Below the pieces are notes generated by a model. The model saw only the letters and a list, made by a program, of their open reading frames with translations. It ran no database searches and was not told where the DNA came from. DNA of 62,687 bases, filler included, from Rhabdomonas costata (lineage: Eukaryota), in NCBI GenBank assembly GCA_019059605.1. It is 37 parts of 37 records of this genome, joined end to end, with 100 filler letters (N's around TTAATTAATTAA, not from the genome) between each part and the next. Parts side by side here need not be neighbours in the genome. Positions count along the whole stretch, not along the records: positions 44,124 to 45,720 come from JAHMHO010012323.1; 36 more parts are not named here. One strand, written 5' to 3'. How positions within the stretch are numbered: the first letter of the stretch is position 1; every line of letters begins with the position of its first letter. Below are positions 9,870 to 54,943 of the stretch, piece after piece. A program made the position numbers and the translations under genes.

Positions 9870-10450
9870 CTGCGCACACAAAAAGGGAGGGCAAAGATCC
9901 GTGTTTTCGTTTCGTCTCATCACCAAGTGCTGGCAATACACAGTGGCACCAATAAAAAATAAACATTTCATCACCTTTCATGCTCGCCAGTGAACGGTAA
10001 AGCACCCAAAAATGCAGCGGAAAACACAAGACGGAAAAGTTTTTTTTTGAAAAACAAAAAAAGAGTGAACAAAAAACANNNNNNNNNNNNNNNNNNNNNN
10101 NNNNNNNNNNNNNNNNNNNNNNTTAATTAATTAANNNNNNNNNNNNNNNNNNNNNNNNNNNNNNNNNNNNNNNNNNNNGTGGTGGGTGTGTTTGGTTGGG
10201 GGTGGCAGCGGTTGTTAATTTGGCCTTGTAGTGAGATGCCCCACCCCCAAAGAAACAGTTGCTTCATAACAGCTAATGCAATTCCAGAGATCCTGAAAGG
10301 TGGAACTCTGCAAGTGGAACTTTGGAAAAACCACATGAAAATGTGTTATTTCTGCACCGGCGTTCGTTTTCCTGCAGATACTGGAACTGGGTGATGCGTG
10401 CATGCGTGATGTGCGTGATGTGTTTGCTCAGTCCCTGTGCCTCCCCCGAG

Positions 10451-21025: not shown

Positions 21026-21621
21026 GCATGTGTCGTGCGGGTGCGTCGCTTTATGGTGATGTTGTTTTGCGAGCAGTTTTGCTCTATCAGCGGAGCGGGA
21101 TTGGGAATATTATCCCTGCAGTCCCCACGAAGTCATTGATATCACATACTTTTGAACTGAGAACGGCCCCACCCCCTCTTCGTCTCTCTTTTTGTCCACG
21201 TCCACTTTTCTTCCTTGAGGAATGGTGGAATGGGTTAAATTGGACAACTGAACTTGCAGGGTTAGGGTGCCAAGGGTTCCAGAGGTGCCAAAAGTTCTCT
21301 AAAGTGCAGCGGCTGACTTGGTGGTCAACTGCGTAGTCGTCAGCTGCGTAGCCAACCTTTTTATGGAAGTCCAGCTGGGGCTGTCCCGAGCGTTATCTTG
21401 TTTGACTTCGGGACAGTTGTGTCTGTTTGTTCGCGTTTGCGAATGTTTGTCCGATGAAAAGAGGGAAAAGAAACACACACGCACACACGTGAAGGAGAAG
21501 GAGGAGGAGGAGAAGGAAGCCAAAGTACTCGCAGACACATCAGGGCAAGGAGTCAGTGAGGCAACCTCGAGGTACCCGAGGCTCAGCTGAAGAGGGCAGG
21601 AATAGCCCGCAACCCAACGAT

Positions 21622-21712
21622 AGAGCGATGTGCTGGCACGGCAACGCCTGTAGATACCGGTGCTGCCCGTTCACCCATCCGAAAGAAAAGCCCCAAGGGT
21701 CGTTCCCGCGAG
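21622..21712 (+). repeat. Dispersed repeat encoding a CCCH zinc finger (copy 1)
   Basis: Translates as RAMCWHGNACRYRCCPFTHPKE and is closely similar in DNA to the minus strand of 52640-52729. Confidence 0.8.
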
Positions 21713-22063
21713 AATAGGCCCCAGCCCCCCAAGGAAGGAGTGTGGAGTCGCAGAGATCTGAGCAGTAATGGAACAATGCAGGTAGCCGCTGGAAAAGAGC
21801 AGCTGCGCGACAATGGCCCGGGACCGGTGGGGCAGAAGGGAGGTTACCAGATGTGCAACGTTCGGCGGTGAGCAGGTTTCGGTTCCCCACGGCACCGTCC
21901 GCTCCAACGACACGTCTCGCGAGCACCCCTGGCCAACAGCGCGTGCGCCCGTCAGTCCAACCANNNNNNNNNNNNNNNNNNNNNNNNNNNNNNNNNNNNN
22001 NNNNNNNTTAATTAATTAANNNNNNNNNNNNNNNNNNNNNNNNNNNNNNNNNNNNNNNNNNNN

Positions 22064-30744: not shown

Positions 30745-32656
30745 CGTGCAGTTTGGGGGACAGGGGGAAGGATGTGGATTTTTCGCATTGTTGTGGAATG
30801 TAAATACTTCGGGTTTGCGAGGTATTGGTGGAAGCCCGTTTGAGTGCGTTGGGTGGGGAGAGAGGAGGTGGGTATTGTGGCATCAACCACGGAGTCGGGG
30901 GTAGCGAAGAGATGGTTGGGATGGTGGGGATTGTCCCCTTCACCAGAGACGTCCCAATAATGGCGCCCGCCTCTCTCGCATTGCGTTTGGGAGTGCGCGC
31001 GCTGTGTGTCGGGTGCTTCTTCGGCGAGAATGGGCGGGACATCCCCGTGCTCATCTGAGGTGATACCTTCGGTGACTTCGTCCCCTACATATCCAAGCAA
31101 AAATCGGGCTAAAGGAGGTAGCATGTAGCAGTGGTGAGAGGTGGGGAAAAATGGGATGGTCTCGGTTGCATCGTGTGAACCACGGCGGCGCATGTGAACT
31201 CTGTGGCATGTGATGGTAGTGGGTGGGATGGCCTTGCGGGCACGAAAGGGGGTTGTTGTGCAGGACTTGAGCCTCTTTCGGGGGGTTTGTCTGTTTTGAT
31301 TCCTGGGCCCCACGAATCTTCCCTTGTTTTTCTAGGGGCCTTTTTCCGCATATTGTGCCACTGCTGTGCCACGTTGCTGCCGGGACTGTTCCATGGGTTG
31401 TTTGGAAAACGATCTTCCAGCGGAGTTCCGAGGTCAGCGGGTATTTTTTATTGTTCTTGAGGGTGAATGTGATCACATAGTCACGTCAGTGCTGTGTGCG
31501 GTCACTCATGTTCATAAAAGAAAAGGAAGTGTTTGCTTCGCAAACTTTTGCTTCACTAAAGAAGAGGACAGATACGGACACTCGTGTCATAACCAGAGGC
31601 CCCGCGGGCACATGGTACAAAAACCGCGCCTGTGGGAGAAGTTCCGGAACACGAAGGACATGAGAATGCGGCAAAACATCAGTTACCGAAAGGAGGACCT
31701 TTTTTTGGGGCTTGCACAGGTTTAGAAAGAGCAAAAACCTCACAAATGCCAGCAAATGATTGCTGTTCGAACTTCAGATTTCTCTGCGTGTGACAGCTTG
31801 GGCCATATTGCTTTCAGGCAGAGGTGATCTATGAGGCCGCCGGTTGAGCGCCAGAATGTCAGAAGGCGCTCTTTCGCAGCTGCCGCATATTTTGCGCTAC
31901 AATGCACAATGCACGACCCCAGCCCCAGATTTAACTTCACAATTAACTTCACCACGGTTACTTACGTCCTGTCTTTTCTTTCCTTTGCTTTCAAGGCGGT
32001 TACGGAACCTTGTGCATATCTGGTGTTATCACGTTGGGAGAAGGCAATTGTAAGACATTCTAATTCTTATGCTTAAGAACTTCCCCCCAGACTGTCTCTT
32101 CAGGAAAAACGTCACCAGGCCTGACCCATCGATCCTACACCCCCCCCCNNNNNNNNNNNNNNNNNNNNNNNNNNNNNNNNNNNNNNNNNNNNTTAATTAA
32201 TTAANNNNNNNNNNNNNNNNNNNNNNNNNNNNNNNNNNNNNNNNNNNNGTGGTGGGTGTGTTTGGTGTGTTTTGTGCTTTATAGCCTTTGTTTCTTTTGT
32301 GCTTAGTTTCCCCTGCAAATCTCTCTCGCGTTCCTGTGTTGCACTCTTCACGAACTCTTGTGCCTGTACCGCAGTGCCGTGAAGTTTTCTTACTAAAGAG
32401 AATCTTTTAATCTTTTTTGTTTTGATACTTAGGGAGAAAGCGAGCAACAAACTCTGCCAGTGCATCCGAGATGCGTTTTTTGTTTTCAAGGGTTTTTCAG
32501 ACACTTTTGGGTGGGGTTGCTGCGGCGTATGTATTAGCCCGTTTCATGGGCTTTGTTGGACAAGTGTGACAGGATATGGGATGGGGGCGACCACACCAAA
32601 AGTCTGTTTTCTGTCTTTCCGCCCGCCTGCCCACACGCCCGCGCATCCACCCACAG

Positions 32657-44123: not shown

Positions 44124-45720
44124 CACCAGCAGCCATTCCCTGGGACCAGGTGGGCCCGTGCCAGTGCGGCTCTCTGCCTGACTGGGTCCGCCGATTCCAA
44201 GGGCATCTGATATGACGGGAATGGCAGAAGATTGTTGCCGTGAGCTTGCGCGAACGAACTACCCTGTTCGACGTTTCACTGAAGGGGACGGCGCTTCCGC
44301 AGGGCGTGCAAAACTTTCTGAACCAATGTTCTTTGCAGGGAATTTCTTAAATGTGTTGAAGCGAGGTGTTTATACTGTGGTGGTGTAGGAGTGAGCAGGG
44401 AGTTTTGTTGTGAACGTTGGTGGAACCACAGCGGACTTTCATGACAGAGACCCAGCACTGACAAAAAACGACATTGACAGCGGGCTGAACAAGGCGTTGG
44501 GGTAAGGACCTTAGCGGGCGCTCTGGAGCTTGACTGTTTCGAGATTACCGTCTGCGAGGTACGAGATGACACGACGACGTCAAGAATACCCGAGGGAGGA
44601 GCGCAGCGACGACCGAGTAGTGAATGTAGGAGCGCGGAACGCAGTGACGAGCGACCGAGACATTACGAACGAAGTGACGAGACGTCAGTCGAGGAACGTA
44701 GTGAGAGCCGGGCCGGAGGCCCTCTTCAACATCACTATTAGCGGTTCCCTCGGCATACGCCTCAGTCACCCAACATCATGAGTTAGGAGGAGGGGCCGGA
44801 GCGTAGCGGAGGACACGACGACGTTAGAAGAAGGAGCATGAGACCGTAGGGCTCATGCGACGTATCCTCATCGTCACTCCCTCTCACGAAGCAAGGGTAT
44901 CATCATGTCGGGTCTCTCAGTCCTTGGAGCCCCTCCCATCATCACATATACGTGTCACTCCACTCGTTCCACCACAACAAGGTGCTTCCACTCGTTTCGT
45001 CCTTGGCGAAGCCACGCGAATACCCCTCAGGAAGGGTTCAGGTTGAGTTCTGAGTGAGTGGTTGACATCAGAGGGTGCCTGTGGGCTCAGAATCACCCCT
45101 TGCGTCAGGAAAAATTCAACCTTTGTCACTCCCTCATGCTTCCTCTACACCCCCCCCCCCTCTCTCTCTCTCAACGTCCGCCTGTCTCAACCATCGGAGT
45201 GGGTAAGATGCATCGGGTACCTGTGGTAGTGTGGGTTCAGTCCCTCCTGCTACCATCATCCCTCAGTATGGGTGTGACGGTCAGCAGGGTACCGGTAGCC
45301 CCTCACGACCACCATCAGGTCTCAAGCACCAACAACGCATAGCATTCAATCATCACCCTCGGAACTCCTACGCTCTGACCACCGGAGGTAGGAATGGGGA
45401 TGGATGTTGCATGCCGCCCTCGGCGGGCTCCACTTCGGAGTTTGTCACCTTGCGGCTATGCTGATCTCAAAGCTTCGGGCGGAGGTTCATGCTGCGCTGA
45501 TGGCACTGCCTTTTGTGAGGCGGACACCGCAGTTTACGGTAATGGTAGAGGCCACGGCAGTGTGCTGGGAGCGGTCTGCTGAGGTAATGCTGGCACCAGC
45601 AGCCATTCCCTGGGACCAGGTGGGCCCGTGCCAGTGCGGCTCTCTGCCTGACTGGGTCCGCCGATTCCAAGGGCATCTGATATGACGGGAATGGCAGAAG
45701 ATTGTTGCCGTGAGCTTGCG
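44124..45720. other. Self-closing contig: 1470-bp circle or tandem unit
   Basis: 44124-44250 is identical to 45594-45720 (127 bp). Confidence 0.85.
44550..44870 (+). repeat. GA-zipper/GNA-triloop hairpin array related to 434-1295
   Basis: 44594-44614 GG-GA-G-GA-GC-GCA-GC-GA-C-GA-CC; 44710-44722 GGGCC-GGA-GGCCC; 44836-44858 GCATGAG-A-CC-GTA-GG-G-CTCATGC. It shares GAGGAGCGCAGCGACGA, CAAGAATACCC and GACCGTAGGG with contig 1. Confidence 0.85.
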
Positions 45721-52416: not shown

Positions 52417-52639
52417 GTCTGTGCAACGTTCAATTTAGTATTTTTTCTTTTTATCTCCGCTGCCTTGTCCTGCACCACTGCCACTGGGCAAGCTTTTATT
52501 CCACCCAACANNNNNNNNNNNNNNNNNNNNNNNNNNNNNNNNNNNNNNNNNNNNTTAATTAATTAANNNNNNNNNNNNNNNNNNNNNNNNNNNNNNNNNN
52601 NNNNNNNNNNGTTTTTGTTGGGTGTGGCTGGGGTCTTTC

Positions 52640-52729
52640 CTCGCGGGAACGGCCCTTGGGGCTTTCTTTCGGATGGATAAAAGGGCAGCACCGGTATCTG
52701 CAAGCGTCGCCGTGCCAGCACTTCGCTCT
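52640..52729 (-). repeat. Dispersed repeat encoding a CCCH zinc finger (copy 2)
   Basis: RAKCWHGDACRYRCCPFIHPKE, homologous to 21622-21712. Confidence 0.8.
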
Positions 52730-54943
52730 GTCTTTGCGGTACGGGCTATTATGAGTGTGTGTGTGTGTGCGTGCGTGCACGTAAGTATTTCTGTGCTGAG
52801 CAGCTCATTTTTTTTTACAAATAGACTCTCATGCAGCGGCAAAACGACACAAACCCAAGCTGTGATGCACTTACACTGCGTTATGTGTGAAGCGGAAGAG
52901 GTGGTTCAGCTGGGTACATCTATGCAAATGGGACATAAAAGTGTGTGTCTTGGACTTACCTATACAATTGGACTTACCAGAATTCATAGACTGTGAGCGA
53001 CCTTCCGGAACGCCATGGTAAACAATGACCCGTTTGCAGTGCAGAACGCTTGAGAGGCGCCCCCAGAGCGAAATCGAGCATTCCAAAGGGTGTGGTCAAC
53101 CGAACTGACAGGACGCTGCACTCTGTGGCCTTAACAAAACATCCAGGGGCGGAGGGACTGAAAGGGGCCACAACTGAGCAGGAGCACCTGACTTTCACTT
53201 CAAGTACAACAGAAACAACACGCGACGGTAAATCGTATGCGACTAAATGAGCTAGAGATACGAACAGCTGACAGGCGGTGGAGGGAGAGAAAACCATCTG
53301 AGAGATTCCCTTTCCAGTGTACAAAACAAAAAACCCTCGTCATCTACAGGGCAACAAAATGCCTGGACCGACAGTCAACATACTATCAGGATCAAACACA
53401 ACAGAAAAAAAACCAGGCGCGCCTCACCCTCGACCCACGTAACCGCAACCTTCTCCCAGTTACCAAATGATTGCTGCCAATCACAGCTTTGTGTCCCAGC
53501 TCTGTTTAATAGCTCGAGCGGAACAGCACAGCCACAGTCATGCACTCAACCGCAGCATGCATGGCGGGTGCGCGTATCACCCAGGAAAAAAGGGAAGGGT
53601 CCAGAAACAAGCAAAACGCAGGCCAAACCTGCGGACATAAAAGCGGAGGGATGGCGGCTGAGATAAACGGACAAATCATGCTCCATGCAATCCAACCTCG
53701 TAACCGAGATCGGGAGTGTTCAAAATTGTGTGAGGTAGTGAGCAGGTGAAAACGGGTAAAAACTTCGAGAGATTTCACCGAGGTGATAAAAAGCAGACTA
53801 TACAAAAGCATGGCACAACGTGGCACAACGCACATCAACAAAAAGTGCACACAAAGAAGAAAACCCCCAAGATGTCTACACACTGCTGGCTTATGCCCTG
53901 AGCACCGAGGAAATTGTATGTAACCGCTACCACTATGCAACCTGTGAGGGCAGATATTCGGGTGCCATGTGAACAAAGATTCCATGCGATAGGCCATCGG
54001 CAGAATTTGGAAAACGCTCAAAAATCCAAAAGCTGGCGAAATCAAGCACAGAGAGCACCTCCGCAGCGTTTTGAGAAGAGCTGAGGGGGACATCATCCAC
54101 ATCCACACAGGGAAAATCCAAATCGAGCGGGGAAGAGGGCAAAGAGAAAAGAGAAGAGAAGCCCGAGCCAAAAGAAAAGGACAAAAAACCCCACACACAC
54201 CCAACACNNNNNNNNNNNNNNNNNNNNNNNNNNNNNNNNNNNNNNNNNNNNTTAATTAATTAANNNNNNNNNNNNNNNNNNNNNNNNNNNNNNNNNNNNN
54301 NNNNNNNTTGTTGTGGTGCATTCCTCTCCGTTTTCTTGTGTTGCACACCACCATTCAGTTGGGAGCAGCTAGCTTTGTACCCCAACTGAATGGTGGTGTG
54401 CAACACAAGAAAACGGAGAGGAATGCACCACATATCGAAGTTGTTGGAAACCAATCGATCAACGTTAGGAAAGGAGCCAGCAACTTTCTCAACAGAGTGC
54501 CGTGAACATAAGAACGCAGACCCCAAAACTCCGTTGTCGTAGTTAGTACGGGTCGTCAACTTTCTCGGGGTTTGGGAGCTTCGAGAGGGGACAGCATCAC
54601 CCCATTTGGTGACAAAACAGTAGAACGTCGTGGCCATCCATTTCCTCTATCCTTTCTATCCCTTTCTTCTATCCGTTCCATGTGTCTGTCAAGTTACGCG
54701 CTCAATTCACATAAAAACCCCCCGTGAATTTGCAATTTTCGTTCAAAGCAACCTTTTTGTGCTCGTGCAAAGCGGCACTAGTCAGAGCATTACGTCCGGC
54801 CCAGGTCCATAGATAGCTCAAATCAAAGAGCAAACAGAAAAAGTCAGAACCATCCGATACGTTCGGGAGCATCCGAAGAAGGATGGGAAAAGCTCCTTCC
54901 TTCTCCGATCAAACCATGCAACCAAAAAGAATCGGGCGCCAAC

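Follow-up and report, generated by a model that had tools for sequence, protein, structure and literature searches.

A 1470-bp unit of Rhabdomonas costata DNA, probably a nuclear composite repeat, joins a dead Penelope-like element fragment to a mini-hairpin array

Contig 27 (JAHMHO010012323.1; positions 44124–45720, 1597 bp, no strand assigned) is probably euglenid nuclear repetitive DNA, that is, a 1470-bp composite unit arranged head to tail and made up of decayed pieces of mobile elements. The window, as we call the whole stretch of 62,687 nucleotides that was analyzed, consists of 37 contigs of the Rhabdomonas costata assembly GCA_019059605.1, of 1589–1600 bp each, with spacers of N between them. 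An earlier note on this DNA had proposed that contig 27 is a small circle carrying captured DNA, either an organellar minichromosome or an ssDNA satellite. The presence of captured, foreign DNA in the unit was supported by our analysis. The minichromosome and satellite readings were not, since the cassette is a pseudogenized fragment of a Penelope-like element (PLE) and the replicon signatures that were tested are absent. With this result, a tempting false lead, the minicircle, is removed.

The first and last 127 bases of contig 27 are identical (44124–44250 and 45594–45720), which confirms that the contig closes into a cycle or repeat unit of 1470 bp, as had been noticed before. This closure is an assembler k-mer overlap: the contig was closed because the k = 127 graph comes back to its own start, and a direct or tandem repeat yields the same outcome equally. 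Among the 37 contigs, self-overlapping ends were found only in contigs 27 and 16. Contig 16 shows the same kind of closure, and each of its units carries a pair of diverged exons for the sushi domain (in Pfam, Sushi with E = 8.8e-5, its 23.3 bits exceeding the cut-off of 20.7, and with E = 0.042), so that closure by tandem repetition does occur in this assembly. Within contig 27, Tandem Repeats Finder detected nothing. In amplified protist DNA assembled from short reads, a terminal overlap of k-mer length is no proof of a circle.

As judged from its sequence, the cassette of contig 27 is a dead, nuclear-type PLE fragment and not a whole element. On the + strand, 45428–45720 matched positions 495–585 of the 1146 of profile A1 (E = 2.4e-30) and represents the first part of a pseudogenized piece of CxC linker from a PLE with an N-terminal endonuclease. 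The same ORF fragment continues across the closure in 44124–44314 (+ strand), the first 127 bases of which duplicate 45594–45720. It stays in frame straight over the junction, across which residues 62–178 of P0095 could be aligned, and the homology fades at ~44314, giving a size of ~355 bases (45428–45593 plus 44124–44314). The 97-aa ORF at 45392–45685 had 14 homologs at E ≤ 1e-3 among the 1.84 billion representatives searched, the best of them with E = 4e-26 and 72% identity. Its CxC motif reads VGPCQCGSL and is aligned with C552/C554, two columns that do not vary within the family. The decay of the fragment is seen in an in-frame TGA at 45686–45688 (= 44216–44218), past which the homology continues, in a 2-residue deletion, and in the loss of the conserved PCC motif.

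What contig 27 keeps is only an internal piece of ~90–118 residues of the PLE protein. Profile A1 had no match in this contig beyond positions 495–585 of 1146, it revealed no remnant of the endonuclease (EN) or the reverse transcriptase (RT) there, and no other contig of the window matched it. Because an ordinary 5'-truncated copy would retain the 3' end, a deletion derivative or a mosaic must be assumed. Two statements of the earlier note have to be revised in this light. Of the 620 bases described as ordinary unique sequence, ~355 are a retroelement ORF fragment, and the remark that no RT is recognizable needs correcting, in that the cassette comes from the ORF of a retroelement, while the fragment itself is without the RT part.

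The full-length relatives of this fragment, proteins of 1100–1200 aa, have a putative GIY-YIG-like N-terminus followed by the CxC motif and then by a C-terminal domain. On the basis of a predicted structure, that of P0118 (pLDDT 82.3), the C-terminal domain is a TERT-like RT; the 10 best PDB matches of the model were all telomerase reverse transcriptases (E = 1.2e-9 to 4e-7). The RT was identified by fold search only: searches of the PDB by sequence with P0098, P0110, and profile A1 returned nothing relevant, and Pfam RVT_1 was not detected in the relatives scanned. The Pfam signal of GIY-YIG was weak, with E = 0.016 in P0096 and none in P0110 or P0098 (three proteins scanned, E ≤ 10), and the GIY-YIG motifs are discernible by eye. 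In the neighbor clusters of the Atlas, which serve as leads only, GIY-YIG is present in 16–50% of the members, with scores of 0.85–0.90. The family is sizeable, its proteins of 1100–1200 residues have no Pfam annotation, and it occurs in many assemblies of environmental DNA. This architecture, in which a short linker domain with the CxC motif separates EN and RT, is the one described, with no canonical hammerhead, for the Naiad/Chlamys PLEs, which are also reported to form partial tandems and head-to-tail non-autonomous copies and to have (C)n/(CA)n targets (PMC8557442). PLEs with an N-terminal endonuclease appear, from these sequences, to exist in euglenids.

The second part of the unit is the block at ~44540–45390, which the earlier note had called compositionally distinct. 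This was borne out, as its dinucleotide distance was 0.244 against a background maximum of 0.209 in the 35 other contigs. The structured part of contig 1 had a distance of 0.196 (99th percentile), and the 620-bp "unique" part of contig 27 one of 0.071 (23rd percentile), which is typical of nuclear DNA. The description of the block as hairpin-rich does not hold for ordinary Watson–Crick hairpins, but it does for C-GNA-G mini-hairpins. Watson–Crick hairpins with a stem of at least 6 numbered one in contig 27, 13 in contig 1, and 1–11 in the other contigs, and 44520–45160 folded no better than shuffled sequences (z = +0.72; 15 of the 20 shuffles folded at least equally well). C-GNA-G mini-hairpins were found 12 times in contig 27 (shuffle mean 3.2, maximum 7), 10 of the 12 on the PLE-sense strand, and 13 times in contig 1 (shuffle mean ~3). 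The mini-hairpin motif has 14 occurrences, with 1.49 expected, and contigs 1 and 27 hold 13 of them. The base pair adjoining the loop (N3:N9) covaries, being paired in 12 of 13 instances with three pair types.

The mini-hairpin tips of contig 27, of the form GA-N-C-GNA-G-N'-GA, make up a purine-rich array at 44540–44860 (+ strand) in which the stems are mostly decayed. Tips are located at 44599–44609, 44637–44647, 44667–44677, and 44694–44704, tip variants at 44801–44807 and 44836–44858, and a single G.A-stabilized rod at 44591–44617, all on the + strand. The array of contig 1 (434–1290, + strand) is well preserved. It has eight rods, one of them at 468–506, in which Watson–Crick stems are combined with tandem G.A pairs, and duplicates within the array differ by compensatory stem changes. 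A long inverted repeat was also considered and was rejected, the purine-rich and pyrimidine-rich arms being unpaired (score 12 vs. 11.2 ± 1.4 in shuffles). With its strand-biased caps and covarying stems, the repeat can be used to ask what keeps the hairpins paired, which might be intrastrand repair or selection on a single-stranded sense-strand intermediate.

Contigs 1 and 27 belong to one non-coding repeat family and are related beyond chance, as had been suspected. They have 29 same-strand 10-mers in common, against 0–11 for any other contig, and three words previously listed as shared were located exactly where they had been placed. A module of ~105 bp is found at 44940–45044 in contig 27 (+ strand; exact 15-mer at 44947–44961 and mini-hairpin at 45004–45014) and, from the alignment with contig 27, at 1294–1409 in contig 1 (+ strand). 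Its alignment score was 21, compared with a maximum of 15 in the 35 other contigs and with 10.7 ± 1.3 (maximum 17) in 300 shuffles. In addition, the patch at 44555–44584 (+ strand) is homologous to 613–642 of contig 1 in 25 of 30 bases. No shared constant region emerged, only short diverged patches of 20–115 bp, and an all-against-all blastn at E ≤ 1e-3 gave no match between the two contigs. The shared 17-mer, which had been taken as a sign of kinship, is weak evidence by itself because the hairpin grammar that includes it recurs in phages and bacteria, but the separate module of 105–115 bases does relate the contigs. In contig 1, the array adjoins DNA unrelated to contig 27, and there is no PLE homology.

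A metagenome scan with two gap-joined hairpin caps matched >116 loci. Comparison of contigs 1 and 27 with 230 hairpin-cap loci detected no homology outside the cap, and there was no PLE match in these 230 loci or in viral contigs. A 15-mer had three matches in viral contigs, none of which resembled contig 1 or 27 in later comparisons. The 1470-bp unit had no match in plasmids and phages by blastn in "distant" mode, and no occurrence of the hairpin words was found in the literature. That the euglenid repeat, phage contigs, and bacterial palindromic repeats share the cap points to convergence on a very stable single-stranded DNA structure.

A nuclear composite repeat, the reading we consider probable, would have three kinds of pieces in each unit. 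One would be the dead internal CxC-linker fragment of a Naiad/Chlamys-type PLE. Another, on the same strand, would be a decayed copy of a repeat composed of the mini-hairpin array and the module of ~110 bp, of which contig 1 would hold a better-preserved copy. The third would be the C/CT microsatellite at 45150–45172 (+ strand), a run of C11 followed by (TC)6; (C)n-type microsatellites are insertion targets for many Chlamys-type PLEs (PMC8557442). The unit would stand head to tail at least ~1.09 times, and a direct repeat of at least 127 bp spaced 1470 bp would suffice for this. Partial tandems in head-to-tail order, or pseudo-LTRs, are characteristic of PLE-type integration, and non-autonomous derivatives form multicopy tandems; since PLEs typically insert in this way, they would produce such an assembly closure. 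The arrangement in contig 27 would be chromosomal. The hairpin block may come from the element that gave rise to the PLE fragment, perhaps as its 3' untranslated region; the two co-occur once, in contig 27, and the block of contig 1 is without PLE homology. A retrozyme, a non-autonomous PLE derivative that spreads through circular RNA, was considered as well and was rejected, as the defining hammerhead of each unit is missing: Rfam at E ≤ 1 gave no match of any kind, hammerhead ribozymes included, in contig 27 or in contig 1.

An ORF for kinesin in contig 8 shares 99% identity with the EukProt entry RCo030468, followed in the search by other RCo entries and transcripts of Euglena gracilis, and a scan of 123 ORFs identified pieces of kinesin, kinase, RVT_1, and GIY-YIG in further contigs. 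Spliced leaders (dinoflagellate and published Rhabdomonas) had no match at up to 3 mismatches, and Rfam had none in the whole window at gathering thresholds. R. costata has no plastid (PMC8219788). At least 10 bases of G/T only at the start, or of A/C only at the end, are present in 29 of the 37 contigs, and these primer-like ends fit single amplicons of whole-genome amplification. Terminal fold-back palindromes of 77–179 bp occur in 9 of the 37.

That contig 27 could be an organellar minichromosome in the style of kinetoplastids or diplonemids, or an ssDNA satellite replicon, is extremely improbable. Its size and two-part layout agree with this, and in one heterotrophic euglenid, circular and linear mitochondrial DNA, unsequenced, was observed by electron microscopy (PMC7238167). 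However, the cassette derives from a retroelement of nuclear type, the GC content is 56.7%, the unique part is nuclear-like in its dinucleotide signature, and the regions common to contigs 1 and 27 are patchy and diverged. The universal 12-mer of minicircles, CSB-3, is conserved in those of kinetoplastids; it had no match at ≤1 mismatch in contig 1 or 27, and the two matches at 2 mismatches in contig 27 correspond to background frequency (12 in the window, 4.95 ± 2.38 expected). Satellites of the CRESS-DNA/nanovirus type have an origin formed by a stem-loop with a conserved nonanucleotide, and the CRESS-type nonanucleotide was matched three times in the window and not once in contig 1 or 27. 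The test for a CRESS-type Rep found no ORF >128 aa in the standard code, and with regard to mitochondrial genes, seven read-through frames in code 4 with TAG = Tyr matched no Pfam family at E ≤ 0.1.

That the unit exists as an extrachromosomal circle of 1470 bp, either as eccDNA derived from the repeat or as a small replicating circle, is unlikely. The exactness of the closure speaks for it, and in Euglena gracilis ~1000 eccDNA candidates are reported, many of them repeat-derived (bioRxiv 10.1101/2023.11.29.569251). If the circle replicated, the mini-hairpin array may provide a signal for single-strand initiation or for priming, given that mini-hairpins of the GCGNAGC/CCGAAGG type are located at primase-dependent ssDNA phage origins and at a plasmid ssiA site (PMC13037366). 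Direct or tandem repeats, however, close equally well, as in contig 16, what the unit carries is a dead piece of a retroelement, and Rep, origin nonanucleotide, and conserved region are all absent. Moreover, primer-based amplification favors no circles, and because the contig-end signatures point to such a method, circles would have had no advantage here. We consider it very unlikely that the unit is a true circle of 1.47 kb, derived from a euglenid PLE and non-autonomous, with contig 1 as a piece of a sister, and that it persists or spreads by way of a single-stranded intermediate of the sense strand. If true, a strand-specific, G.A-clamped C-GNA-G array would play the role of the retrozyme hammerhead or of the priming signal of an ssDNA replicon. 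An amplification chimera or a mis-joined graph path, in a genome without any 1470-bp periodicity, is quite unlikely: the fold-back palindromes and primer-like ends indicate heavy amplification, and a published assembly of the species has a coverage of only 10–20x (PMC8219788), but the cycle requires reads joining end to start across 127 exact bases, the adjacent A/C and G/T runs that mark the junction of ligated or concatenated amplicons are missing from contig 27, and the ORF fragment is in frame directly across the closure.

In its small size, and in being divided into a shared and a unique part, contig 27 resembles the minicircles of kinetoplastids and the mitochondrial chromosomes of diplonemids. 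Unlike diplonemid chromosomes, contigs 1 and 27 are without a long near-identical constant region, and the cassette of contig 27 is not a piece of a mitochondrial gene. The likeness to the Naiad/Chlamys PLEs, as these are described by Craig et al. (2021, PMC8557442), lies in the CxC linker, in the TERT-like RT of the relatives and their putative GIY-YIG-like N-terminus, and in a (C)n-type microsatellite inside the unit; the closure is compatible with a head-to-tail or partial tandem, and Rfam detected no hammerhead. The fragment of contig 27 differs from those elements in having a stop and in being without endonuclease, RT, and defined termini. Its host is a euglenid, whereas the main text of that description mentions neither euglenids nor Discoba, and these PLEs are not known to carry an array of mini-hairpins. 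The array has the same cap as the d(GCGNAGC) mini-hairpins, a C-GNA-G triloop with flanking tandem G·A pairs (PMC13037366), and the 17-mer of contigs 1 and 27 is the same as that of the prokaryote and phage hairpins of the form gtcattgc-GAGGAGCGCAGCGACGA-agcaatc. In contrast to the known mini-hairpin repeats, the array described here is strand-biased and lies in what is probably a eukaryotic nuclear repeat.

The first 127 bases of contig 27 (44124-45720, 1597 bp) are identical to its last 127, so that the contig closes into the 1470-bp unit previously proposed as a minicircle. Of the 37 contigs, only contigs 27 and 16 close on themselves. The 1470-bp unit of contig 16 (25459-27055) contains a diverged pair of sushi-domain exons (Pfam Sushi, E = 8.8e-5 and 0.042), with internal repeats of 79-80% identity. 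Because contig 16 is a tandem exon array inside a gene, and not a circle, repeat-derived closure does occur in this assembly.

The contigs, separated by N spacers, are 1589-1600 bp long, and their ends share several features. A start of at least 10 bases in G/T only, or a finish of at least 10 in A/C only, was seen in 29 of the 37 (e.g., 10179-10205 and 32249-32276), an identical 17-mer opens contigs 7 and 20, and nine contigs (5, 8, 11, 20, 23, 24, 29, 33, and 34) carry terminal fold-back palindromes of 77-179 bp. These features look like amplification-primer remnants and snap-back chimeras, and the outermost contig bases are therefore not genomic. We take the signature to be that of primer-based whole-genome amplification, each contig representing about one amplicon. 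The largest default k of SPAdes is 127. A published Rhabdomonas costata draft is described as assembled from amplified DNA of this kind with SPAdes 3.7.0 and 250-base reads (PMC8219788). With amplicon-sized coverage, a direct repeat of at least 127 bp at 1470-bp spacing would collapse to a cycle after clipping of the short primer-derived tips. The closure of contig 27 is most likely not that of a circle.

The window consists of interrupted eukaryotic nuclear DNA, as seen from the Pfam pieces matched among the 123 frames of at least 110 aa scanned: kinesin, protein kinase, RVT_1 (twice), GIY-YIG, and parts of flavoproteins. The kinesin ORF of contig 8 is 99% identical to EukProt RCo030468, the next best matches being further RCo entries and transcripts of Euglena gracilis, which points to a euglenid source, probably R. 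costata. The RVT_1 ORFs are a non-LTR-like one in contig 37 (61270-62264) and a second on the minus strand of contig 14 (22064-22567); like the GIY-YIG ORF of contig 23, they are parts of other mobile elements. A 126-bp repeat, 86.5% identical and in opposite orientation in contigs 13 (21601-21726) and 32 (52626-52750), is another dispersed family, unrelated to contig 27.

Contig 27 carries dead retroelement DNA as its payload. The frame at 45392-45685 is 97 aa long, and a search of 1.84 billion representative proteins gave 14 homologues for it at E <= 1e-3 (best 4e-26, 72% identity). Once stops are treated as X, this homology extends from 45428, past an in-frame TGA (45686-45688) and over the closure, as far as 44314. 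A 1146-position profile built from 22 relatives (A1) matched only over its positions 495-585 (E = 2.4e-30). Beyond this it had no match in contig 27 and none in the remaining contigs, and it did not hit the ORF of contig 23 (37767-38531) that was identified as GIY-YIG at E = 1.8e-6. The relatives are proteins of 1100-1200 residues without Pfam annotation, from environmental contigs of 3-6.7 kb. They have a GIY-YIG-like N-terminus, weakly so (Pfam E = 0.016 in one protein), an invariant CxC motif, and a C-terminal domain; all ten of the best PDB matches to the model (pLDDT 82.3) were telomerase reverse transcriptases. The Naiad/Chlamys Penelope-like elements (PLEs) have this architecture. At least 34 clusters (P0110, P0113-P0145) of proteins from environmental contigs, which are roughly 700-1770 residues long and lack Pfam annotation, form a family that combines a CxC linker with a GIY-YIG-like N-terminus and an RT fold like that of telomerase, and that probably represents N-terminal-endonuclease PLEs of protists.

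The block at 44540-45390 was confirmed to be compositionally distinct (dinucleotide distance 0.244, against a background maximum of 0.209), while the remaining 620 bp resemble ordinary nuclear DNA (23rd percentile). Contrary to the earlier note, the block is not rich in hairpins when these are counted in the usual way: Watson-Crick hairpins with stems of at least 6 bp number one here and 13 in contig 1, and the folding energy of the block was not better than that of shuffles (z = +0.72). What it does contain is the motif GA-N-C-G-N-A-G-N-GA, of which the window has 14 copies where 1.49 would be expected; none of 100 shuffles had as many. Contig 1 accounts for nine of them and contig 27 for four, and the remaining one lies within a GA microsatellite in contig 5. 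Bases three and nine are complementary in 12 of the 13 copies of contigs 1 and 27, with three pair types, which makes the core a mini-hairpin with a C-GNA-G triloop; tandem G.A pairs flank it. The d(GCGNAGC) class is reported to be extraordinarily stable as DNA (PMC13037366). The special stability of these caps is present only on the sense strand of the PLE fragment; if the hairpins act single-stranded, the strand would be the transcript or plus-strand DNA.

When both Watson-Crick and tandem 5'-GA/5'-GA pairs were permitted, long rods numbered eight in contig 1, one in contig 27 (44591-44617), and none in the other 35 contigs. Counting every instance with a stem of at least 2 bp, there are 12 C-GNA-G hairpins in contig 27 (10 on the plus strand) and 13 in contig 1 (12 on the plus strand), compared with shuffle means of about 3, shuffle maxima of 7-8, and 0-9 in the other contigs; the nine of contig 13 are dispersed and lack GA flanks. 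The duplicated units of contig 1 are 86% identical, stem differences being changes on both sides. In contig 27 the stems extend 1, 2, 0, and 0 bp beyond the cap, so its array is a decayed copy. The hairpin block may be part of the PLE: in contig 27 it is on one strand with the PLE fragment, at a distance of 225 bp. Contig 1, however, has the hairpin block without PLE homology.

The three words reported as common to contigs 1 and 27 were recovered in place, but no constant region was detected between them by blastn at E <= 1e-3. The two contigs have 29 same-strand 10-mers in common, where other contigs have 0-11, and a collinear module (1294-1409 in contig 1, 44940-45044 in contig 27) scored 21, compared with at most 15 in the other 35 contigs and 10.7 +/- 1.3 in 300 shuffles; in one patch of 30 bases, 25 match. 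Judged by these comparisons, the relationship between contigs 1 and 27 is real. Just 3' of the module, contig 1 (1420-1560) has seven TTAG words and one CTAA in about 130 bp (GGGTTAGCG, GGATTAGCC, and similar), which has the look of degenerate repeats of telomere type; Tandem Repeats Finder made no call there.

The cap is also found outside this genome. The 17-mer GAGGAGCGCAGCGACGA occurs in 98 IMG/VR stretches from phage-like contigs (L120-L217), and in 15 of the 60 matches listed it sits inside 'gtcattgc...agcaatc' hairpins. Two caps with a gap matched more than 116 metagenome loci, and the contig 1-style unit with outer clamps occurred 15 times in 13 prokaryote-genome loci of GTDB (L218-L230), ten of these belonging to one palindromic repeat of Thermoanaerobaculia/Acidobacteriota, which is larger than the near-identical clamped hairpin that it encloses; such a hairpin is also present in Gordonia, Williamsia, and Aquihabitans. 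None of these loci resembles contig 1 or 27 beyond the cap, so sharing the 17-mer says little about common descent. Our literature search found no paper with the 17-mer or the clamped-hairpin words.

Since the payload is a dead retroelement and the non-structured part is nuclear-like in its dinucleotides, we favor, with some reservation, a chromosomal composite repeat of mobile-element origin, arranged head to tail. The earlier observation held in part, and its minicircle interpretation is not supported. eccDNA candidates have been reported in Euglena (bioRxiv 10.1101/2023.11.29.569251), yet a real circle, eccDNA included, seems unlikely here, as the same closure arises by tandem repeat in contig 16 and the unit carries dead retroelement DNA. 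We consider it quite improbable that the closure is an artefact, and an organellar or satellite replicon can be given hardly any weight, none of the defining features sought of kinetoplastid minicircles, diplonemid chromosomes, and CRESS-type satellites having been found.

Among the loci compared, L080 (3318 bp) consists of a 1598-bp unit repeated 2.08 times at 100% identity; the unit has five of these GA-flanked caps in a purine-rich stretch and a 224-aa ORF whose start is F-box-like. The layout is analogous to that of contig 27, without sequence homology, and the locus could represent either a small circle or a tandem. Naiad/Chlamys PLEs are described as inserting as partial tandems (pseudo-LTRs), with non-autonomous derivatives forming multicopy head-to-tail arrays that have the same 3' ends as their masters (PMC8557442). 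According to the same source, these elements lack canonical hammerheads and frequently have (C)n or (CA)n repeats as their targets; contig 27 has no Rfam hammerhead and carries a C11(TC)6 run at 45150-45172.
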